A stretch of DNA of 40,000 nucleotides. Origin: Marinobacterium mangrovicola (GTDB lineage: Bacteria > Pseudomonadota > Gammaproteobacteria > Pseudomonadales > Balneatricaceae). Location: positions 578,658-618,657 of the forward strand of contig NZ_SMFU01000007.1 of assembly GCF_004339595.1 (NCBI RefSeq). Reading direction: 5' to 3'. The position numbers and the translations under genes are program-made. Positions 15,461 through 26,449 of the stretch are shown here, in pieces (position 1 is the stretch's first letter; every line of letters starts with the position of its first letter). The notes under the pieces are model-generated. The model had not been told where the DNA came from. It worked only from the letters and a program-made list of their open reading frames with translations, and made no database searches.

Positions 15461-16429
15461 TCACTTCAGTCCACTCAGTGGACTCCGCACACCCTGAGCG
15501 CCTTGCTTTAATACATGGGTGTATATTTCTGTAGTCTTTACATCCGCATGCCCTAGCTGCTGTTGGACCGTTCGGATATCTACTCCCGACTGCAGCAGGT
15601 GAGTCGCAAACGAATGTCTTAGGGTATGACAGGAGACATTCTTCCTGATGCCGGATTCTCTGGCCGCTTTCTTCACAATTTTATTAAGGTTATGCTCGTC
15701 AAAGTGATGTCGCCGTAAACAGCCGCTTTCAGGATCGATACTCAAGCGAGAGGCAGGGAAGAGATAGTGCCAACCAAGCTCAAAAGGTGCGCTTGGATAT
15801 TTCCGGGCCAGTGCATCTGGCAACCATACGCCGGAATACCCATCGACAGCTTTATCAATCCCCAGGAAGGCTTCAACTTTCTTTACCTGGCTATTGAGAG
15901 GTTCAAGGAGTTCATCAGCCAAGGTTACAAGTCGGCGCTTGCCGCCTTTGCCGTAGTTCACTCGAATCTGCCGATAGTCAAAATCGATATCTTTCACTCT
16001 AAGGCGAATAAGTTCGATACGCCGCAACCCAGAGCCGTACAGCAAAGCGGCCATAAGGTAGTGGTGTCCGCTAAGCGTCGAGAGCAAGCCACTCACTTCG
16101 CTATGTGTCAAAACGACTGGCAGTTTAGGTTGCCGCTGAGACCTGCTGAAGCCAGAGATGTCGCCTACCGCTTGTTTCAGAAATTTGGTTTTCAGGAATA
16201 CGATCGCATTCAACGCCAATGCTTGGGTGCCCGCCGAGACGTTTCGCTCCGTCGCGAGAAAGGTAAGAAAACCCTCAATCTCAGTATCACCAAGCTCGGA
16301 CGGATGCCGTTTGTTACAGAACAGAATGAAAAACTTGATCCAGTACAGGTAGGAGTCAATGGTCCGCCGGCTGTAACGGTGTACACGCATAAAATTTTCG
16401 ACGGATTGAAGAAAAGGAGATCTTGCCAT
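15461..16429 (-). CDS. intI: Integron integrase IntI (tyrosine recombinase)
   Basis: Collinear with IntI1/VchIntIA as I recall them: RTIDSYLYWIKFF, RRIELIRLRVKDID, the IntI-specific insertion GVWLPDALARKYPSAPFELGWHYLFPA...RRHH, HTLRHSFATHLL, LGHADVKTTEIYTHVLKQGAQGVRSPLSGL. The R-H-R-Y catalytic residues are present. The start is uncertain (ATG at 16429 or 16447); the track ORF extends to 16555. Confidence 0.9.
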   Translation of the reverse strand: MARSPFLQSVENFMRVHRYSRRTIDSYLYWIKFFILFCNKRHPSELGDTEIEGFLTFLATERNVSAGTQALALNAIVFLKTKFLKQAVGDISGFSRSQRQPKLPVVLTHSEVSGLLSTLSGHHYLMAALLYGSGLRRIELIRLRVKDIDFDYRQIRVNYGKGGKRRLVTLADELLEPLNSQVKKVEAFLGIDKAVDGYSGVWLPDALARKYPSAPFELGWHYLFPASRLSIDPESGCLRRHHFDEHNLNKIVKKAARESGIRKNVSCHTLRHSFATHLLQSGVDIRTVQQQLGHADVKTTEIYTHVLKQGAQGVRSPLSGLK

Positions 16430-16555
16430 GTGTAACACCTCATCCATGAAATGTTTGAAAACGTTATACCCCCTGGAGCAGGCATCCGTCGAGCATGATG
16501 CCCCTTTAATAAGGAAGCATTCTTCAGAATGAGGGAAAAATCCTTTTTTGATCAA

Positions 16556-16653
16556 CGGGTTGCTTTGGGAAGGTTCAACTTCTTTGAGACTTATAAGGCA
16601 TACCCTCTAATAATTATTATGGGGCCAACGGCCCCATTAACAGGCTGTTACAC
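16556..16653 (+). other. Putative attI region with GTTACAC core (16647-16653)
   Basis: The first GTTRRRY motif between the intI 5' end and the first cassette ORF. It is followed by AAGGAGA (16658-16664) and the first cassette start. A GGGGCC-AAC-GGCCCC hairpin lies at 16621-16635. Confidence 0.5.
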
Positions 16654-16668
16654 GCACAAGGAGACATC

Positions 16669-16905
16669 GTGATTAAAACAGACCATATATCAATTCAATG
16701 CCCTCAGTGTGGACATACTGAATTCGAGCAGCCAGAAAATGTGAAGGATGACGATTTTGTAAAATGCAATAGTTGCCACTTTGAAATCATGTTAGCTGAT
16801 TTGAAAGAGGTAGGGATTGAGCAAGCTAGAGAGGTTGTTATTCCCGAAGCAAAAGCAGAAATTGAGAAAATGCTAAAGAAAGCATTCAAAGGCCGCCTCA
16901 AGTGA
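16669..16905 (+). CDS. Cassette 1, gene a: small zinc-ribbon protein
   Basis: 78 aa with a GTG start after a strong SD. It has CPQCG...CNSCH (four Cys, zinc-ribbon spacing) and then a Lys/Glu-rich helix. Confidence 0.65.
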   Translation: MIKTDHISIQCPQCGHTEFEQPENVKDDDFVKCNSCHFEIMLADLKEVGIEQAREVVIPEAKAEIEKMLKKAFKGRLK

Positions 16906-17375
16906 GTAAGTTTGAGATTCTGAGCCTAATTATTTCTACTTTAGCTGCTGTGATTTCATGTGTTTCGTTGGTGCGTACAAGAAAGCTAGCTAAAGAACAG
17001 CTCGAGCTTGAAAGAGTAACCGCTGAGTTATCTAGACTTCAAATTGAAAGCATCGCTGAAGAAAAGTCTGATAAAACCAAGCCAAAGTTTAATGTAAATC
17101 TCACGAAGTTTGGTAAGTCCTACAATTTTTATATATCAAATACTGGCCAAGGCAGCGCTTACAATGTTGATTTTGAGCTAATTGATTGTAATGACAGTCC
17201 GCTATCAACTCATGAGTTACAGGATATGTTTCCTCATCAAGAGATGAAACCAAACTCAAGAATAAAACTTATGGCCGCAATTCATATGGGTAGTCCCAGG
17301 AAATATCAGGTTAAGTTAACTTGGGAGAATGCAGACGGGGAAAAATATGATGAGACATTTTGGCCTACGCTGTAG
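16902..17375 (+). CDS. Cassette 1, gene b: membrane-anchored coiled-coil protein with a beta-rich C-terminal domain
   Basis: 157 aa. The GTGA start/stop overlap with gene a indicates translational coupling. It has an N-terminal TM (ILSLIISTLAAVISCVSLV), a heptad-like segment (KEQLELERVTAELSRLQIESI), then a C-terminal domain I do not recognise. Confidence 0.65.
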   Translation: MSKFEILSLIISTLAAVISCVSLVRTRKLAKEQLELERVTAELSRLQIESIAEEKSDKTKPKFNVNLTKFGKSYNFYISNTGQGSAYNVDFELIDCNDSPLSTHELQDMFPHQEMKPNSRIKLMAAIHMGSPRKYQVKLTWENADGEKYDETFWPTL

Positions 17376-17378
17376 CAC

Positions 17379-17450
17379 GTGTAACAAGGCGCTGTTGTCG
17401 GACTGTTTTTCCGCTGCGCTCCAAAACAGCCGCAAAGCGTGGCGTTAGCA
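17379..17450 (+). repeat. attC 1
   Basis: GTGTAAC...GTTAGCA. The arms are partly complementary (GACTGTTTTT / AAAACAGCC). Confidence 0.75.
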
Positions 17451-17457
17451 CAAAAGA

Positions 17458-17980
17458 ATGAATCAGATCGAAGCAACTAAGATTGTGGTTGAGAAAGTCA
17501 TGGCTCATAAGCCAGGATTCTCTCTAATGCTTGATTCCACGGAGGAATTTGGAAAGTGTTTTGCTTTCTACTGCCAGAATGACTCTTATGTCGACATCCG
17601 GAGATGTTTCTGATATGAGCGTAGGTCAAGGTCCTATAATTGTGTGTAAAACCACAGGTGAATGTTTTGAAACTGGTTCCACATTTTCAACTCATGAATA
17701 CGTCCATGCGTTTGAGGCATGTGGTGATCCGTATGGGAGGCCCACCGCCAGAGTTCGCATTATGGGCTGGATCGAGGGAGCGAATGCGGTCAAAGCAGTT
17801 CAATGCGTAAAAGCAGCATCTAATCTAAATCTTGCACAGGCAAAATCACATATAGATACTGTATTGAGTGGTGGGAATACAGTTGTTTGTCTAGATTCCA
17901 TAGATGAAGTTGCAGGGGTAATTCAAACTTTAAGTAAGAATGGATTTGAATCAAGACAACTTTGGAGCAACCAGTGCTAA
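17458..17980 (+). pseudogene. Cassette 2: YrhB/Imm35-like protein with an L7/L12-C-like tail, interrupted by a frameshift
   Basis: The ATG at 17458 opens MNQIEATKIVVEKV...FGKCFAFYCQNDSYV and then hits TGA at 17611. The homology continues in the next frame (track ORF 17531-17980) as SGDVSDMSVGQGPIIVCKTTGECFETGS..EYV. The pieces are collinear with E. coli YrhB as I recall it. The frame switch is at about 17588-17597. Confidence 0.6.
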
Positions 17981-18342: not shown

Positions 18343-18417
18343 CAAAGCCAAGCACGATCGCACCAGCAAGCTGGTGCTGGACCTCGCTACGCTCGGCCCG
18401 TGTTGGCGGCGTTACAT
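18337..18417 (+). repeat. attC 3
   Basis: ATTTAAC...GTTACAT. The ends are nearly identical to attC 6 (AACAAAGCCAAGCAC ... CTGGACCTCGCTACGCTCGGCCYGTGTTGGCGGCGTTA). Confidence 0.8.
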
Positions 18418-18432
18418 GCCTTAGGAGATATT

Positions 18433-18765
18433 GTGCCAAGCCAAAAGGAAGTATGTAAAAAAATCGACGCAATACCGTTTCCCTCCAAAGAGAGTGAAAA
18501 ACTAGGTATAGCTGTCGAAACTATTGGCAAATTGCCAATTAATGGCTTGCGGCTCAATCCCGAGGACGGAACATGTGGCTGGTATATTTGGTGCGGCGAA
18601 GAAATGTCCGAAGACGCAGATTTTTTCAAGCCATTGCATGTCAGCCATATCTCGGAGTACCTACCTGAAGTAGAGCAATATTTATCATTGCCACCAGGTT
18701 ATAGATTTTTAGTAGCTGGCGAGTACGAGGATGTGTGGCATGATCCACAGCTCACCAGCATGTAA
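18433..18765 (+). CDS. Cassette 4: hypothetical protein, possibly Imm33/DUF2185-like
   Basis: GTG start 4 nt after AGGAGA. The motif DGTCGWYIWCGEEMSEDADFFKPLHVSHI...LPPGYRFLVA resembles the GW..W.GEE proteins I associate with Imm33/DUF2185. The family call comes from memory only. Confidence 0.55.
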   Translation: MPSQKEVCKKIDAIPFPSKESEKLGIAVETIGKLPINGLRLNPEDGTCGWYIWCGEEMSEDADFFKPLHVSHISEYLPEVEQYLSLPPGYRFLVAGEYEDVWHDPQLTSM

Positions 18766-19234: not shown

Positions 19235-19313
19235 CAAGTTGTTGTAGTTTGTTCCGGCCTAAGGCCTCCACTGGACGCCCCTCTCGGGGCGCCGCTAAAC
19301 AAAAGCGTTATGA
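19229..19313 (+). repeat. attC 5
   Basis: ACTTAAC...GTTATGA. Internal hairpins are GGCC-TAA-GGCC and GCGCCCC-TCTC-GGGGCGC. The same subfamily as attC 9 and attC 10. Confidence 0.75.
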
Positions 19314-19669
19314 ATCCCTCAGATTCGAGAGAGAAAATGTATCCGGATGATGTGAATGGCGATGTGTTCAGAAGATTGGAGGAAGATAATTTCGATTTCT
19401 CTATCGAGCATCCAGTCGATTTCTATGCTATCTATGCCACCGAAGAAGAAGCTGACCTCGTTGCAAGGCAATACGCAACCGATTGGAAGAACGGACAAAA
19501 ATTTAAAAATATAGAAACAAGGCCGAGTGATGATGGTGGTATGGAGTTAGAGTTAGTCCCAATTATGATGGTTACATTTGACAATGTCGTCGCCTTTGAA
19601 AATAAACTGGCCGAGCGTACATCAAAGGTGAACGGATATTTGGATGGCTGGGGCGTTTTAAATGGCTAA
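19310..19669 (+). CDS. Cassette 6: RraB-family protein (regulator of ribonuclease activity B-like)
   Basis: 119 aa. It matches the RraB pattern: ...NGDVFRRLEEDNFDFSIEHPVDFYAIYATEEEADLVA... and a C-terminal YLDGWG (compare RraB YDGWG). The ATG lies inside the attC 5 R' core. Confidence 0.7.
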   Translation: MNPSDSREKMYPDDVNGDVFRRLEEDNFDFSIEHPVDFYAIYATEEEADLVARQYATDWKNGQKFKNIETRPSDDGGMELELVPIMMVTFDNVVAFENKLAERTSKVNGYLDGWGVLNG

Positions 19670-19826: not shown

Positions 19827-20135
19827 ATGGCCAGGAAAAAGTATCAGCACTATACCGAGGAGTTCCGACGCGAAGCGGTAAAGCGCGCGGGTCAACCTGG
19901 GAATACAGCAGCCTCGGTTGCGAAAGAATTGGGGATTCATCCGGGTCAGATCTATAACTGGAAGCGCCAGTTCAACCGCTTGTCGGAGAAGCAATTCAAC
20001 AGCCTGAATGGTGTCGACTACTCCAAGTCTGAAAGCGAAGAAGTTCGCCAGTTAAAGCGTGAGCGGGATGCGCTGAAGAAGGAGCTCGAGTTTCTAAAAA
20101 AAGCTGCTGCGTACTTTGCGAGCCAGCACGAGTAA
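19827..20135 (+). CDS. IS3-family transposase OrfA (HTH)
   Basis: MARKKYQHYTEEFRREAVKRAGQPGNTAASVAKELGIHPGQIYNWKRQF followed by a leucine-zipper-like tail, as is typical of IS3 OrfA. Confidence 0.9.
   Translation: MARKKYQHYTEEFRREAVKRAGQPGNTAASVAKELGIHPGQIYNWKRQFNRLSEKQFNSLNGVDYSKSESEEVRQLKRERDALKKELEFLKKAAAYFASQHE
20096..20103 (+). promoter_or_regulatory. Programmed -1 ribosomal frameshift site (A AAA AAA G)
   Basis: Seven A residues then G, in the orfA frame as cta-aaa-aaa-gct. The -1 frame is open from here into orfB (..KKSCCVLCEPARVKYALIQEYRGQFSIRLMCRVLKVSASGYYRW). Confidence 0.75.
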
Positions 20136-20182
20136 AGTACGCTCTGATACAGGAGTATCGAGGACAGTTTTCGATACGTCTG

Positions 20183-20989
20183 ATGTGTCGAGTGTTAAAG
20201 GTATCGGCATCAGGATATTACCGCTGGTTCAACCGGGATATCAGTTCTCGTGAGCTCAAGCGGCAGATCATGGAAGAGCAGGTCATGGATACCTTCGCCA
20301 CTTACAAAGCCCGCTATGGGGCACCGAGAATCGCCAAGGAGCTCAATGCTCTAGGCATCCCTTGTTCGGTCAATTACGTGGCTGAGATCCTCCAACGTCA
20401 CGGTGCCAGGGCTCGTAACGGCAAGGCCTTCAAGTATTCGCCGAACACCGAAGCGATGACCGGCGTGGCCGACAACCTTCTCAAACGTCATTTCAACGCG
20501 GATGGTCCAAACCAAAAGTGGACCACCGATATCACCTATATCTGGGTCAAGGATCGCTGGTTGTACCTGGCCACGGTGATGGATCTGTATTCGCGCAGCA
20601 TCGTCGGTTGGGCGCTTGATACCAGCATGACCGAACAGTTGATCACTGATGCGCTGCAAATGGCATTTAAACGTCGTGATATCGAGCCTGGTTTAATAAT
20701 CCATTCGGATCGTGGCGTCCAGTATCGTTCGAACCGCTATCAGGCCTTGATGGAGCGTCACGGCTGCCAACCCAGCATGAGTCGAAAAGGGAACTGTTGG
20801 GACAATGCAGTGATGGAGTCGTTTTTCAGTCGGCTGAAAGTGGAGCTGATCTATGCTGAACAATATCGAACAGTAGACGAAGCTAAATCAGGGATATTCG
20901 AGTACATCGAAGTATTTTATAACCGCATACGTAGACACTCAGCTTTGGACTATGTCAGCCCAGCAGAGTATGAGCGCAAATGCGCATAA
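20183..20989 (+). CDS. IS3-family transposase OrfB (DDE integrase domain; expressed as an OrfAB fusion)
   Basis: It has an rve-type DDE domain (WTTDITYI, IIHSDRGVQYRS, NCWDNAVMESFFSRLK) in the -1 frame relative to orfA. Confidence 0.9.
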   Translation: MCRVLKVSASGYYRWFNRDISSRELKRQIMEEQVMDTFATYKARYGAPRIAKELNALGIPCSVNYVAEILQRHGARARNGKAFKYSPNTEAMTGVADNLLKRHFNADGPNQKWTTDITYIWVKDRWLYLATVMDLYSRSIVGWALDTSMTEQLITDALQMAFKRRDIEPGLIIHSDRGVQYRSNRYQALMERHGCQPSMSRKGNCWDNAVMESFFSRLKVELIYAEQYRTVDEAKSGIFEYIEVFYNRIRRHSALDYVSPAEYERKCA

Positions 20990-24902: not shown

Positions 24903-25520
24903 ATGATTTCTATAGAGTTTTTACTCACCTCGCTAGTGGTGGTTCTAATTCCGGGAACAGGGGTTATATATACCGTCGCAACAGGGATCTTCGTAGGTAA
25001 ACGTGCGAGCATATTTGCTGCATTCGGATGCACCCTCGGTATAGTCCCTGCACTTTTAGCCAGTGCTTTTGGTCTTGCCGCTATCTTTCATGCCAGTGCG
25101 CTCGCATTTCAGGTGGTAAAATATACTGGTGCTTTATACTTGATTTATCTTGCATGGCAAATGTGGCGGTTTTCTTCTCCACTCTGTTTGAAAGATAATA
25201 AAGCAGGAGGGAGATACACTGACATTGTTGTCAAAGGATGTTTGATCAATATCCTAAACCCTAAACTTTCTATATTCTTTTTGGCTTTCCTGCCACAGTT
25301 TATATCTAGCAAAACCGATAGCGCTCTAGTTGGTATGATGGTCCTTGGGCTTGTTTTTATGGTTATGACCTTTGCTGTGTTTATTGTGTACGGTGTTCTT
25401 TCAGGAATTTTTAGCCATTTTATTGTTAAGTCAAAAATAGCCAGCAGTGTCATGCATAGAATTTTCGCTACAAGTTTTGCTGCGCTCGGACTTAAGTTGG
25501 CTTTTAGTGATCGGGTATAA
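24903..25520 (+). CDS. Cassette 14: LysE/RhtB-family amino-acid exporter
   Basis: 205 aa with six TM helices. It has the N-terminal LIPGTGVIYTV motif and the LNPKLSIFFLAFLPQF motif typical of LysE/RhtB translocators. Confidence 0.85.
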   Translation: MISIEFLLTSLVVVLIPGTGVIYTVATGIFVGKRASIFAAFGCTLGIVPALLASAFGLAAIFHASALAFQVVKYTGALYLIYLAWQMWRFSSPLCLKDNKAGGRYTDIVVKGCLINILNPKLSIFFLAFLPQFISSKTDSALVGMMVLGLVFMVMTFAVFIVYGVLSGIFSHFIVKSKIASSVMHRIFATSFAALGLKLAFSDRV

Positions 25521-25880: not shown

Positions 25881-25971
25881 TATAATAAATTGCTCAAGTT
25901 TACTCCAGGCCTTTGGCCCTCCTTGAGACCTACGCAGCTTCGCTGCTCAGGCCCCTTAGCAAAGCGTTATA
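25881..25971 (+). repeat. attC 15
   Basis: TATAATA...GTTATAT. Complementary arms are AAATTGCTCAAG / CTTAGCAAAGC. The same subfamily as attC 8. Confidence 0.65.
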
Positions 25972-25975
25972 TACT

Positions 25976-26449
25976 ATGAGATATTTACTGATACTTCTCG
26001 CGTTGATTTCATCCCAAGCTAATGCAGGTGTTGATCTAGTACGGGTCGATAAGTCCGAGAGGAAAATGTATCTGTTGTCTGGCGGGGAAATAGTAAAGGA
26101 GTACCATGTTGCACTTGGCGCTAATCCTAAGGGGCCCAAGCAACAAGAGGGTGATGAGCGGACGCCGGAGGGTGACTACACCTTAGATTACAAGAAGGAA
26201 GATTCATCATTCTATAGAGCAATGCATATAAGCTACCCAAATCAAGAAGATATGGCGAATGCTGAGGAATTAGATGTTCCTCCAGGTGGGTTTATCATGG
26301 TCCATGGTCAGCGTAACTGGCTAGGATGGCTTTCTCCAGTTTCGCAGCGCTTCAATTGGACAAATGGGTGTATTGCACTGACGAACGATGAAATGGATGA
26401 GTTCATGGATCTGGTTAATGTCGGTACAAAAATTGAAATTAAGTGGTAA
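25976..26449 (+). CDS. Cassette 16, gene a: exported L,D-transpeptidase (YkuD domain, YafK-like)
   Basis: Signal peptide MRYLLILLALISSQANA. YkuD catalytic region MVHG...WTNGCIALTNDEMDEF (His ... Cys). The RTPEGDY motif is also present. Confidence 0.85.
   Translation: MRYLLILLALISSQANAGVDLVRVDKSERKMYLLSGGEIVKEYHVALGANPKGPKQQEGDERTPEGDYTLDYKKEDSSFYRAMHISYPNQEDMANAEELDVPPGGFIMVHGQRNWLGWLSPVSQRFNWTNGCIALTNDEMDEFMDLVNVGTKIEIKW

Follow-up and report, generated by a model that had tools for sequence, protein, structure and literature searches.

A two-gene zinc-ribbon and membrane-protein cassette of a Marinobacterium integron as a candidate mobile anti-phage module

The stretch of DNA studied here, termed the window throughout, comprises 40,000 nucleotides from Marinobacterium mangrovicola (assembly GCF_004339595.1, contig NZ_SMFU01000007.1, positions 578,658 to 618,657) and contains an integron, the first cassette of which is the subject of this report. 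An earlier reading made from the sequence only (the sequence-only reading) had described this cassette as holding two open reading frames (ORFs) that overlap by GTGA, the first encoding a small zinc ribbon (ORF1) and the second a membrane-anchored protein (ORF2), and had proposed the pair as a novel system of the anti-phage type. The ORF listing as well as the raw sequence bear out the layout, and the whole unit constitutes a single cassette of 797 bp, the first one after attI. The two ORFs are assigned to one attC-bounded cassette because the attI core, a Shine-Dalgarno sequence and a folding 72-nt attC flank them (Table 1). All traits that characterize an integron cassette were found, i.e., a 5' core junction, an attC of its own, an adjacent integrase gene and recurrence in other arrays.

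Table 1. Features of the integron and its first cassette, in window coordinates.
Feature	Position	Strand	Basis and remarks
intI, integron integrase	15461..16555	-	TIGR02249, 437.9 bits (cut-off 265)
attI core GTTACAC	16647-16653	+	Sequence; 92 nt from intI start; cassette begins after G, at 16648
ORF1 Shine-Dalgarno AAGGAGA	16658-16664	+	Sequence; motif kept in orthologous cassettes
ORF1, 78-aa zinc ribbon	16669..16905	+	GTG start; CPQC 11-14, CNSC 33-36; C-terminal helices ending ...MLKKAFKG
ORF2, 157-aa membrane-anchored protein	16902..17375	+	GTG start; overlap GTGA with ORF1 at 16902-16905
ORF2 residues 5-24, single transmembrane helix (EILSLIISTLAAVISCVSLV)	16914..16973	+	Sequence; 20 hydrophobic residues; RTRK follows
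ORF2 residues 25-58, juxtamembrane helical stalk	16974..17075	+	Best conserved segment; AlphaFold2 helix
ORF2 residues 61-155, immunoglobulin-like beta-sandwich	17082..17366	+	Motif N-x-G-x-G-x-A; AlphaFold2 strands 63-153
Cassette attC (72 nt)	17379-17450	+	R'' GTGTAAC 17379-17385; R' GTTAGCA 17444-17450; recombination point after G17444

In addition to the integron-integrase family listed in Table 1, the intI product matches the Pfam families Phage_integrase (3.6e-38) and Phage_int_SAM_4 (2.5e-25), and its true start is probably an internal methionine near residue 43. The 5' junction at attI conforms to GTTRRRY, the core expected for an integron cassette, and the junction ...GCGTTACACGTACAAGGAG was also seen ahead of the pair in over 10 further integrons, located there behind the attC of the preceding cassette. 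Between the cassette boundary and the GTG start of ORF1 the leader measures only 21 nt, which leaves no space for an internal promoter, and a search of positions 16200-17600 for a sigma-70 consensus promoter found none. As judged from the sequence, the pair appears to have no promoter of its own in the window and its transcription would have to come from the attI side. The attC at the other end is an imperfect palindrome, the bottom strand of which folds as a bulged hairpin in which both the R box and the L box are paired; its folding energy by itself is unexceptional (z = -1.0). Its R'' end, ACGTGTAACAA, is kept in orthologous cassettes while the centre varies. The limits given for attC rest on cassette ends conserved across genomes; heuristic attC detection was too strict or noisy.

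The description of the ORF1 product as a four-cysteine zinc ribbon of 78 residues with a helix holds in the sequence, where both CxxC motifs are present, and in the AlphaFold2 (AF2) model, which consists of a ribbon core and C-terminal helices. The core (residues 8-45) is modelled with confidence, at predicted local distance difference test (pLDDT) values of 80-90. The C-terminal helices (residues 42-57 and 60-74) are of low confidence when ORF1 is modelled alone (pLDDT 54-63). In an alignment of 17 relatives C11, C14, C33 and C36 are invariant and the C-terminal helices are conserved as well as the ribbon. Low model confidence together with such conservation is what one usually sees where a segment adopts its fold on a partner. 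Taken together, sequence and model describe ORF1 as a presumably soluble zinc ribbon followed by two amphipathic helices. The protein is encoded in a single copy in the genome and 53 homologues were found. It matches NCBIfam model NF047912 (ECs_2282 family putative zinc-binding protein) with 40.3 bits (cut-off 37); in a six-frame search with the same model it reached 36.7 bits, and 39.2 bits with neighbours. Weak profile matches were obtained to TIGR03655 (Lar, 0.0021) and NF038384 (YnfU, 0.0032).

For ORF2, sequence and AF2 model again agree with the architecture proposed earlier, namely an N-terminal transmembrane (TM) helix, a helical segment and a beta-rich C-terminal domain. The model (mean pLDDT 85.9) features a continuous helix from residue 3 to residue 58, followed by a beta-sandwich of 7-8 strands between residues 63 and 153. 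The stalk, with a mean majority fraction of 0.77 as compared to 0.68-0.69 for the other parts of the protein, contains the invariant columns R25, R27, E32, Q33, L36, E37, T40, A41, L43, S44 and Q47. From the RTRK that follows the TM helix, the positive-inside rule predicts an N-out, C-in topology. ORF2 is accordingly predicted from sequence and model to be a single-pass inner-membrane protein with its short N-terminus outside and stalk and sandwich in the cytoplasm. The sandwich is placed in the cytoplasm because of the positively charged RTRK directly behind the TM helix and because of a fusion of the same domain to a TIR domain, which is described below. For the same two reasons a spanin or holin was ruled out, as the C-terminal domain would lie on the side of the membrane opposite to that of an i-spanin.

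ORF2 is likewise single-copy and matches the PHROGs family phrog_6723 over its full length (1.3e-19, 71.6 bits, residues 10-153 on positions 6-155 of 159). A total of 107 close homologues were found, and a profile search against 1.84 billion representatives retrieved 821 clusters at 50% identity (E<=1e-3); among the matches listed, nearly all family members are 150-165 aa long. The distribution of the family is patchy, with presence in 3 out of 400 other genomes sampled from the same class. ORF2 itself has no match in Pfam and none in PADLOC at E<=0.01. Comparison of the ORF2 model with the PDB by Foldseek resulted exclusively in generic immunoglobulin (Ig)-like sandwiches (best E 2e-3, template modelling score <0.5), while the same comparison with BFVD led to uncharacterised phage proteins of the same helix plus sandwich layout. 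The profile and structure comparisons recommended by the sequence-only reading have thus been made, and a housekeeping fold, which would have spoken against it, did not emerge.

Both ORFs are real genes under strong purifying selection according to their substitution patterns. When compared with the orthologous cassettes at loci L001-L003, ORF1 has a proportion of nonsynonymous differences (pN) of 0.03-0.05 and a proportion of synonymous differences (pS) of about 0.8; the respective values for ORF2 are 0.07-0.10 and 0.7-0.8, synonymous sites are saturated, and among these three loci omega ranges from 0.03 to 0.10 for the two genes. Searches of Pfam, NCBIfam, PHROGs and PADLOC with both proteins led solely to two families without assigned function, ECs_2282 and phrog_6723, and neither protein matches a validated system in PADLOC-DB 2.0. 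Profile searches against solved structures yielded no relative of either protein, and tblastn against 50,697 deposited phage genomes yielded no close one. The literature covered on ECs_2282 and on two-gene defence systems of zinc-ribbon and TM proteins contains nothing on this pair, with the work of Getz et al. (2025) on integrons of Vibrio parahaemolyticus lying outside that coverage.

The two genes belong together. In 15 of the 16 genome loci retrieved with the ORF2 profile, the gene directly upstream of the ORF2 relative is an ORF1 homologue, the sixteenth locus being cut by a contig end, and the same gene order was encountered in every further context opened (L018, L047, L048, L050-L058) as well as on replicons from Moellerella, Acinetobacter, Serratia and Pantoea and on R997, down to 25-30% identity. 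In total, about 30 loci feature an ORF1-family gene immediately 5' of an ORF2 relative. The ORF1 partners in R997 and at locus L048 match NF047912 with 65-68 bits. Separate occurrence of the genes had been set beforehand as a refuting test, and it is not the rule: the 15 of 16 loci and the further contexts present them as a conserved pair. The proposed translational coupling is supported by a 4-nt overlap (ATGA or GTGA) that is retained in 27 of 28 pairs, and across 23 pairs the pairwise identity of ORF1 is correlated with that of ORF2 (r=0.92). The genes are translationally coupled and co-inherited, as far as sequences can tell. In Pseudomonas and Vibrio, the genes next to the pair on its 3' side show no mutual relationship, and the pair is therefore considered the whole unit. 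A third gene of the system was looked for and rejected, given these unrelated downstream genes; the TIR neighbours that recur each form a cassette or gene of their own and bear no relation to one another.

A Pirellulaceae metagenome-assembled genome (MAG) carries two copies of the pair about 3.8 kb apart (L016, 351-1018 and 4144-4965) with near-identical flanks, the second copy being broken by small indels that resemble homopolymer sequencing errors. On account of these copies, the pair also occurs outside the Proteobacteria.

With the same ends, the cassette was found in integrons of Motiliproteus, Pseudoalteromonas, Thalassolituus, Bermanella, Aeromonas, Shewanella, Alishewanella and Pseudomonas and also in a Sphingopyxis MAG. 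These occurrences (loci L001-L003, L005, L006, L010-L012, L014, L015, L047, L055 and L057) cover at least eight named genera plus MAGs. The shared ends read ...GCGTTA(C/T)ACG... before the pair and ...ACG(T/C)(G/A)TAACAA...GCGTTA after it, and an IntI is encoded within 2-3 kb in two of these integron loci. Judging by these sequences, it is a bona fide mobile cassette common to integrons of many genera. The question raised by the sequence-only reading, i.e., whether the pair co-occurs as a unit in other integrons or in defence islands, can be answered in the affirmative for both. The centre of attC differs between L001-L015, L047, L055 and L057 and often resembles the neighbouring attC of the host; in arrays of the Pseudomonas type it is nearly identical to the attC of the preceding cassette. 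The attC body thus seems to be adapted to the host array, by re-fitting or homogenisation, with no change in cargo. One coding region accompanied by host-specific attC centres lends itself to studies of how a cassette is adapted to a new integron.

Outside integrons, the pair occupies sites of very different nature. In R997, which belongs to the SXT/R391 group of integrative and conjugative elements (ICEs), it is located in hotspot 5 at the traI-proximal end, where a type I restriction-modification (R-M) system, McrBC and a restriction endonuclease precede it and mobH/traI follow. The R-M content of this SXT/R391 hotspot has been described (PMC5561048), and according to LeGault et al. every SXT ICE with a recognisable hotspot 5 carries anti-phage systems there (10.1101/2020.12.16.423150). 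The Moellerella copy resides on a conjugative plasmid, where a type I R-M system, the pair and an abortive-infection (Abi) gene are followed by three tyrosine recombinases, and in Vibrio cyclitrophicus three islands that contain a comparable trio of recombinases feature GAPS4, a 1269-aa SIR2_2 protein and AAA_15/21 ATPases as neighbours. In Pseudomonas jessenii the pair follows an M78 peptidase gene, with two TIR_2 genes, PIN-TPR-GreABC and HetE-N nearby. It adjoins a prophage integrase in Pseudomonas viridiflava and P. alliivorans, occupies the moron site that separates gpV from gpS in a P2-like prophage on an IMG/VR contig, and is also plasmid-borne, on one replicon of 5.7 kb and on large ones. 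Some copies adjoin transfer genes, namely mobH/traD in R997, traI/J/K/M in Legionella and trh in Klebsiella. Independent defence-rich neighbourhoods were encountered in at least seven unrelated elements, and the recurrent siting beside known defence genes in unrelated elements is a qualitative pattern rather than a statistical enrichment. In consequence, the idea of an anti-phage-type module has gained from contexts outside integrons, where the pair is repeatedly found in defence hotspots, while the assignment of a function is still inferred as before.

In the Vibrio cyclitrophicus islands (L052-L054, 8719-9471) a gene for a 250-aa metallophosphatase is always located 5' of the pair; it matches PADLOC model PDC-S10 (2.3e-13) and may be a separate candidate defence gene. 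An assignment of the Vibrio and Moellerella loci to Gamma-Mobile-Trio islands was rejected, as their trio recombinases do not match NF040693, and none of the systems GAPS1-13 is identical with the pair.

Exchange of a TM segment for a TIR domain in front of a shared domain is a pattern of abortive-infection effectors. Such an exchange was encountered in P0188, a protein of 256 aa in which a TIR_2 domain (3.9e-21, 76 bits) takes the position of TM helix and stalk and precedes a sandwich approximately 65% identical to that of 157-aa family members. As a sequence, it fits a cytoplasmic location of the sandwich. The gene (L045, 1496-2266) resides on an ENA contig (ERZ25069412), where its neighbours are a Dsr1 sirtuin system in split form and a DUF4238 gene. 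That the combination of TIR and sandwich represents a wider family was considered and rejected: other TIR loci (L019-L044) encode different C-terminal domains, and P0188 stays a singleton among the matches listed for that reason.

The pair is probably a new phage-defence module, because it is strictly conserved and adjoins known anti-phage genes on mobile elements. More specifically, we propose, with a probability of roughly 45%, that the two proteins of the cassette form a phage-exclusion module of the abortive-infection type, which many kinds of mobile element carry as a unit. The C-terminal helices of ORF1 would dock on the conserved stalk of ORF2, and the resulting complex would be held inactive at the membrane. 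A phage product would be recognised by the zinc ribbon, the beta-sandwich or both, and recognition would make stalks and TM helices re-associate, upon which the membrane would lose integrity or potential and the infected cell would stop supporting phage growth. TM helix and stalk would represent the effector and the beta-sandwich a sensing or regulatory module. A broader proposal is put forward more tentatively, namely that the pair stands for an unrecognised and widely mobile family of two-gene anti-phage systems, in which a cytoplasmic Ig-like sensor would be combined with interchangeable effectors (mostly a membrane-disrupting TM/stalk, in at least one case a TIR NADase) under the control of an ECs_2282-type zinc ribbon.

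Several observations weigh against these proposals. One TM helix is no proof of a pore-forming effector and could be an anchor only. The TIR fusion is known from a single protein, encoded on a 9.5-kb metagenome contig with the label 2x, and at such low coverage an assembly chimera is possible. The association with defence genes is likewise uneven, since guilt by association is weaker in integrons and on plasmids with their mixed cargo: the array in the window carries Imm33-like, RraB, LysE, YkuD and IS3 cassettes, not defence genes, and in Psychrobacter the pair is located between fumC and the gene for an outer-membrane protein without any defence neighbours. When 96 ORF2 relatives were compared with PADLOC, scattered single matches were obtained only. 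ORF1 relatives do match PADLOC candidate models (PDC-S64 in 12 of 17 and PDC-M14A in 9 of 17), which speaks for a role in defence, but these models are unvalidated candidates and the matches are in part driven by the zinc knuckles. Furthermore, ORF2 relatives on a Marinobacter plasmid and on a Legionella plasmid lack an ORF1-family partner, and the namesake of the ORF1 family, ECs_2282 from prophage Sp12 of Escherichia coli O157:H7 Sakai, stands alone without an ORF2-like gene 3' of it.

Immediately upstream of the two unpaired ORF2 relatives a 220-aa protein (Marinobacter, L065, 5254-5916) and a CGNR zinc-finger protein (Legionella, L066, 5254-5784) are encoded, which could be alternative partners or unrelated neighbours. 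In Sp12, ECs_2280 and ECs_2281 (L017, 9052-9523), located downstream of cI and adjoining ECs_2282, resemble a small antitoxin and a ParE/RelE-type toxin.

Three other explanations have to be weighed. An accessory membrane function unrelated to phages, e.g., in envelope or stress adaptation or in rivalry among mobile elements such as entry exclusion during conjugation, could hitch-hike on mobile elements. The Psychrobacter pair, located between core genes with no defence genes near, would be readily understood in this way, as would the plasmid and ICE copies beside transfer genes, the generic Ig-like fold and the functionally mixed array in the window. We nevertheless regard such a function as unlikely, as it is at odds with the defence-rich neighbourhoods in at least seven unrelated elements, with the rare and patchy occurrence of the gene, as is usual for conflict genes, and with the TIR fusion, which argues for a role in conflict. 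Superinfection exclusion, in which a complex on the inner face of the membrane would block entry of the phage genome or an early membrane step without killing the cell and the TM helix would be an anchor, appears less probable again. It is favoured by the moron position in a P2-like prophage and the copies beside prophage integrases, by the phage-linked nature of the protein families (phrog_6723, phrog_4852 and ECs_2282 in a lambdoid prophage) and by the make-up of ORF2 from a single TM helix and a cytoplasmic domain; in addition, the integron cassette protein Deva is reported to be located in the membrane and to interfere with injection (10.1101/2024.07.02.601719). However, the pair is also found where no prophage is present, and searches of Pfam, NCBIfam, PADLOC and PHROGs revealed no homology to known superinfection-exclusion proteins. 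Abortive infection fits better than exclusion because the TIR fusion suggests that the sandwich can drive an effector of the suicide type.

Toxin-antitoxin (TA) pairs are the commonest two-gene cassettes of chromosomal integrons, and addiction therefore deserves consideration, with ORF2 as a membrane toxin, ORF1 as its labile zinc-ribbon antidote and stabilisation of the carrier array, plasmid or island as the outcome. Two small, overlapping and co-directional genes, the smaller one first, that strictly co-occur and co-evolve and that reside on a 5.7-kb plasmid as well as on large ones would suit such a module. Still, we consider it the least probable of the explanations discussed. In Pfam, NCBIfam and PADLOC neither protein resembles a toxin or antitoxin family, a DNA-binding autoregulatory domain is not recognisable in ORF1, and a leader of 21 nt without promoter consensus does not suit an addiction module, which has to secure its own expression at every site of insertion. 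Moreover, RelE/ParE systems are already present on two of the plasmids concerned, the small one from Acinetobacter and the one from Pantoea, and some ORF2 relatives occur without a partner. It should be kept in mind that TA and abortive infection are not mutually exclusive.

That integron cassettes can carry small defence systems is established (10.1101/2024.07.02.601686, 10.1101/2024.07.02.601719, 10.64898/2026.03.17.712381), and none of the systems in these three papers combines a zinc ribbon with a protein consisting of a single TM helix and a beta-sandwich. Closest in concept is Sucellos (SclAB), a two-gene cassette of a sensor and a membrane pore, both genes of which are needed and the membrane protein of which has been proposed as suicide effector (10.1101/2024.07.02.601686). 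Like Sucellos and lambda RexAB, the pair combines a soluble partner with a membrane protein, in the case of Sucellos also within one cassette. Unlike in these systems, ORF2 has one TM helix and a cytoplasmic sandwich instead of a multi-pass pore, ORF1 with its 78 aa is far smaller than RexA or SclA, and no similarity in sequence or fold was found. The defining combination of a multi-pass pore and a RexA-like partner is consequently not present. A resemblance to effectors of the CBASS, Thoeris and Pycsar type is given by the occurrence of the same sandwich behind a TM helix (in the family) or a TIR domain (in P0188), but there is no cyclase, nucleotide-sensing domain or signalling component, and the swap is based on one metagenomic protein. 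With type II TA cassettes the pair shares two short, overlapping and co-directional genes and a wide horizontal spread; it differs from them by the lack of homology to TA families, of a DNA-binding antitoxin domain and of an internal promoter, and it does not qualify as a member of this type.

With regard to the individual proteins, ORF1 shares four cysteines, small size and a helical tail with ECs_2282 (66-68 aa), which, in contrast, has neither the ...KKAFKG tail nor an ORF2-like gene downstream. Lar and YnfU are of similar size, phage-linked and connected to ORF1 by a weak profile match; however, these matches are far below the curated cut-offs and driven by the CxxC knuckle, and Lar and YnfU have no membrane partner. 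ORF2 is matched by phrog_6723 over its full length, but most copies have been seen on integrons, islands and plasmids.

Provided that the pair acts in defence, it would rank with 235 aa in total among the smallest two-component defence systems, and its modular layout of anchor/effector, stalk, sensor fold and zinc-ribbon partner should ease dissection. It has spread to nearly every class of mobile element, i.e., integron cassettes, SXT/R391 ICEs, prophages and conjugative as well as small plasmids, and for this reason it is a good marker for the movement of defence genes between vehicles. Should the proposed role be true, it would provide a first function for two orphan families, NCBIfam ECs_2282 and phrog_6723, the ORF2 family alone comprising about 800 clusters at 50% identity.

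Two further observations concern the surroundings of the cassette. Downstream, the later cassettes (18400-18765, 19310-19669, 19827-20989, 24903-25520 and 25913-26449) comprise genes for an Imm33-like immunity protein, an RraB-family protein, a LysE translocator and a YkuD L,D-transpeptidase, and the array is interrupted by an IS3-family element (rve domains). In the interval from the intI start to attI, a perfect palindrome with an 8-bp stem, ATGGGGCC-AAC-GGCCCCAT, is located at window positions 16619-16637. It is followed by a T-rich run on the minus strand and scores as terminator-like; judged by its sequence, it could shield intI from antisense transcription or serve as a protein-binding site.

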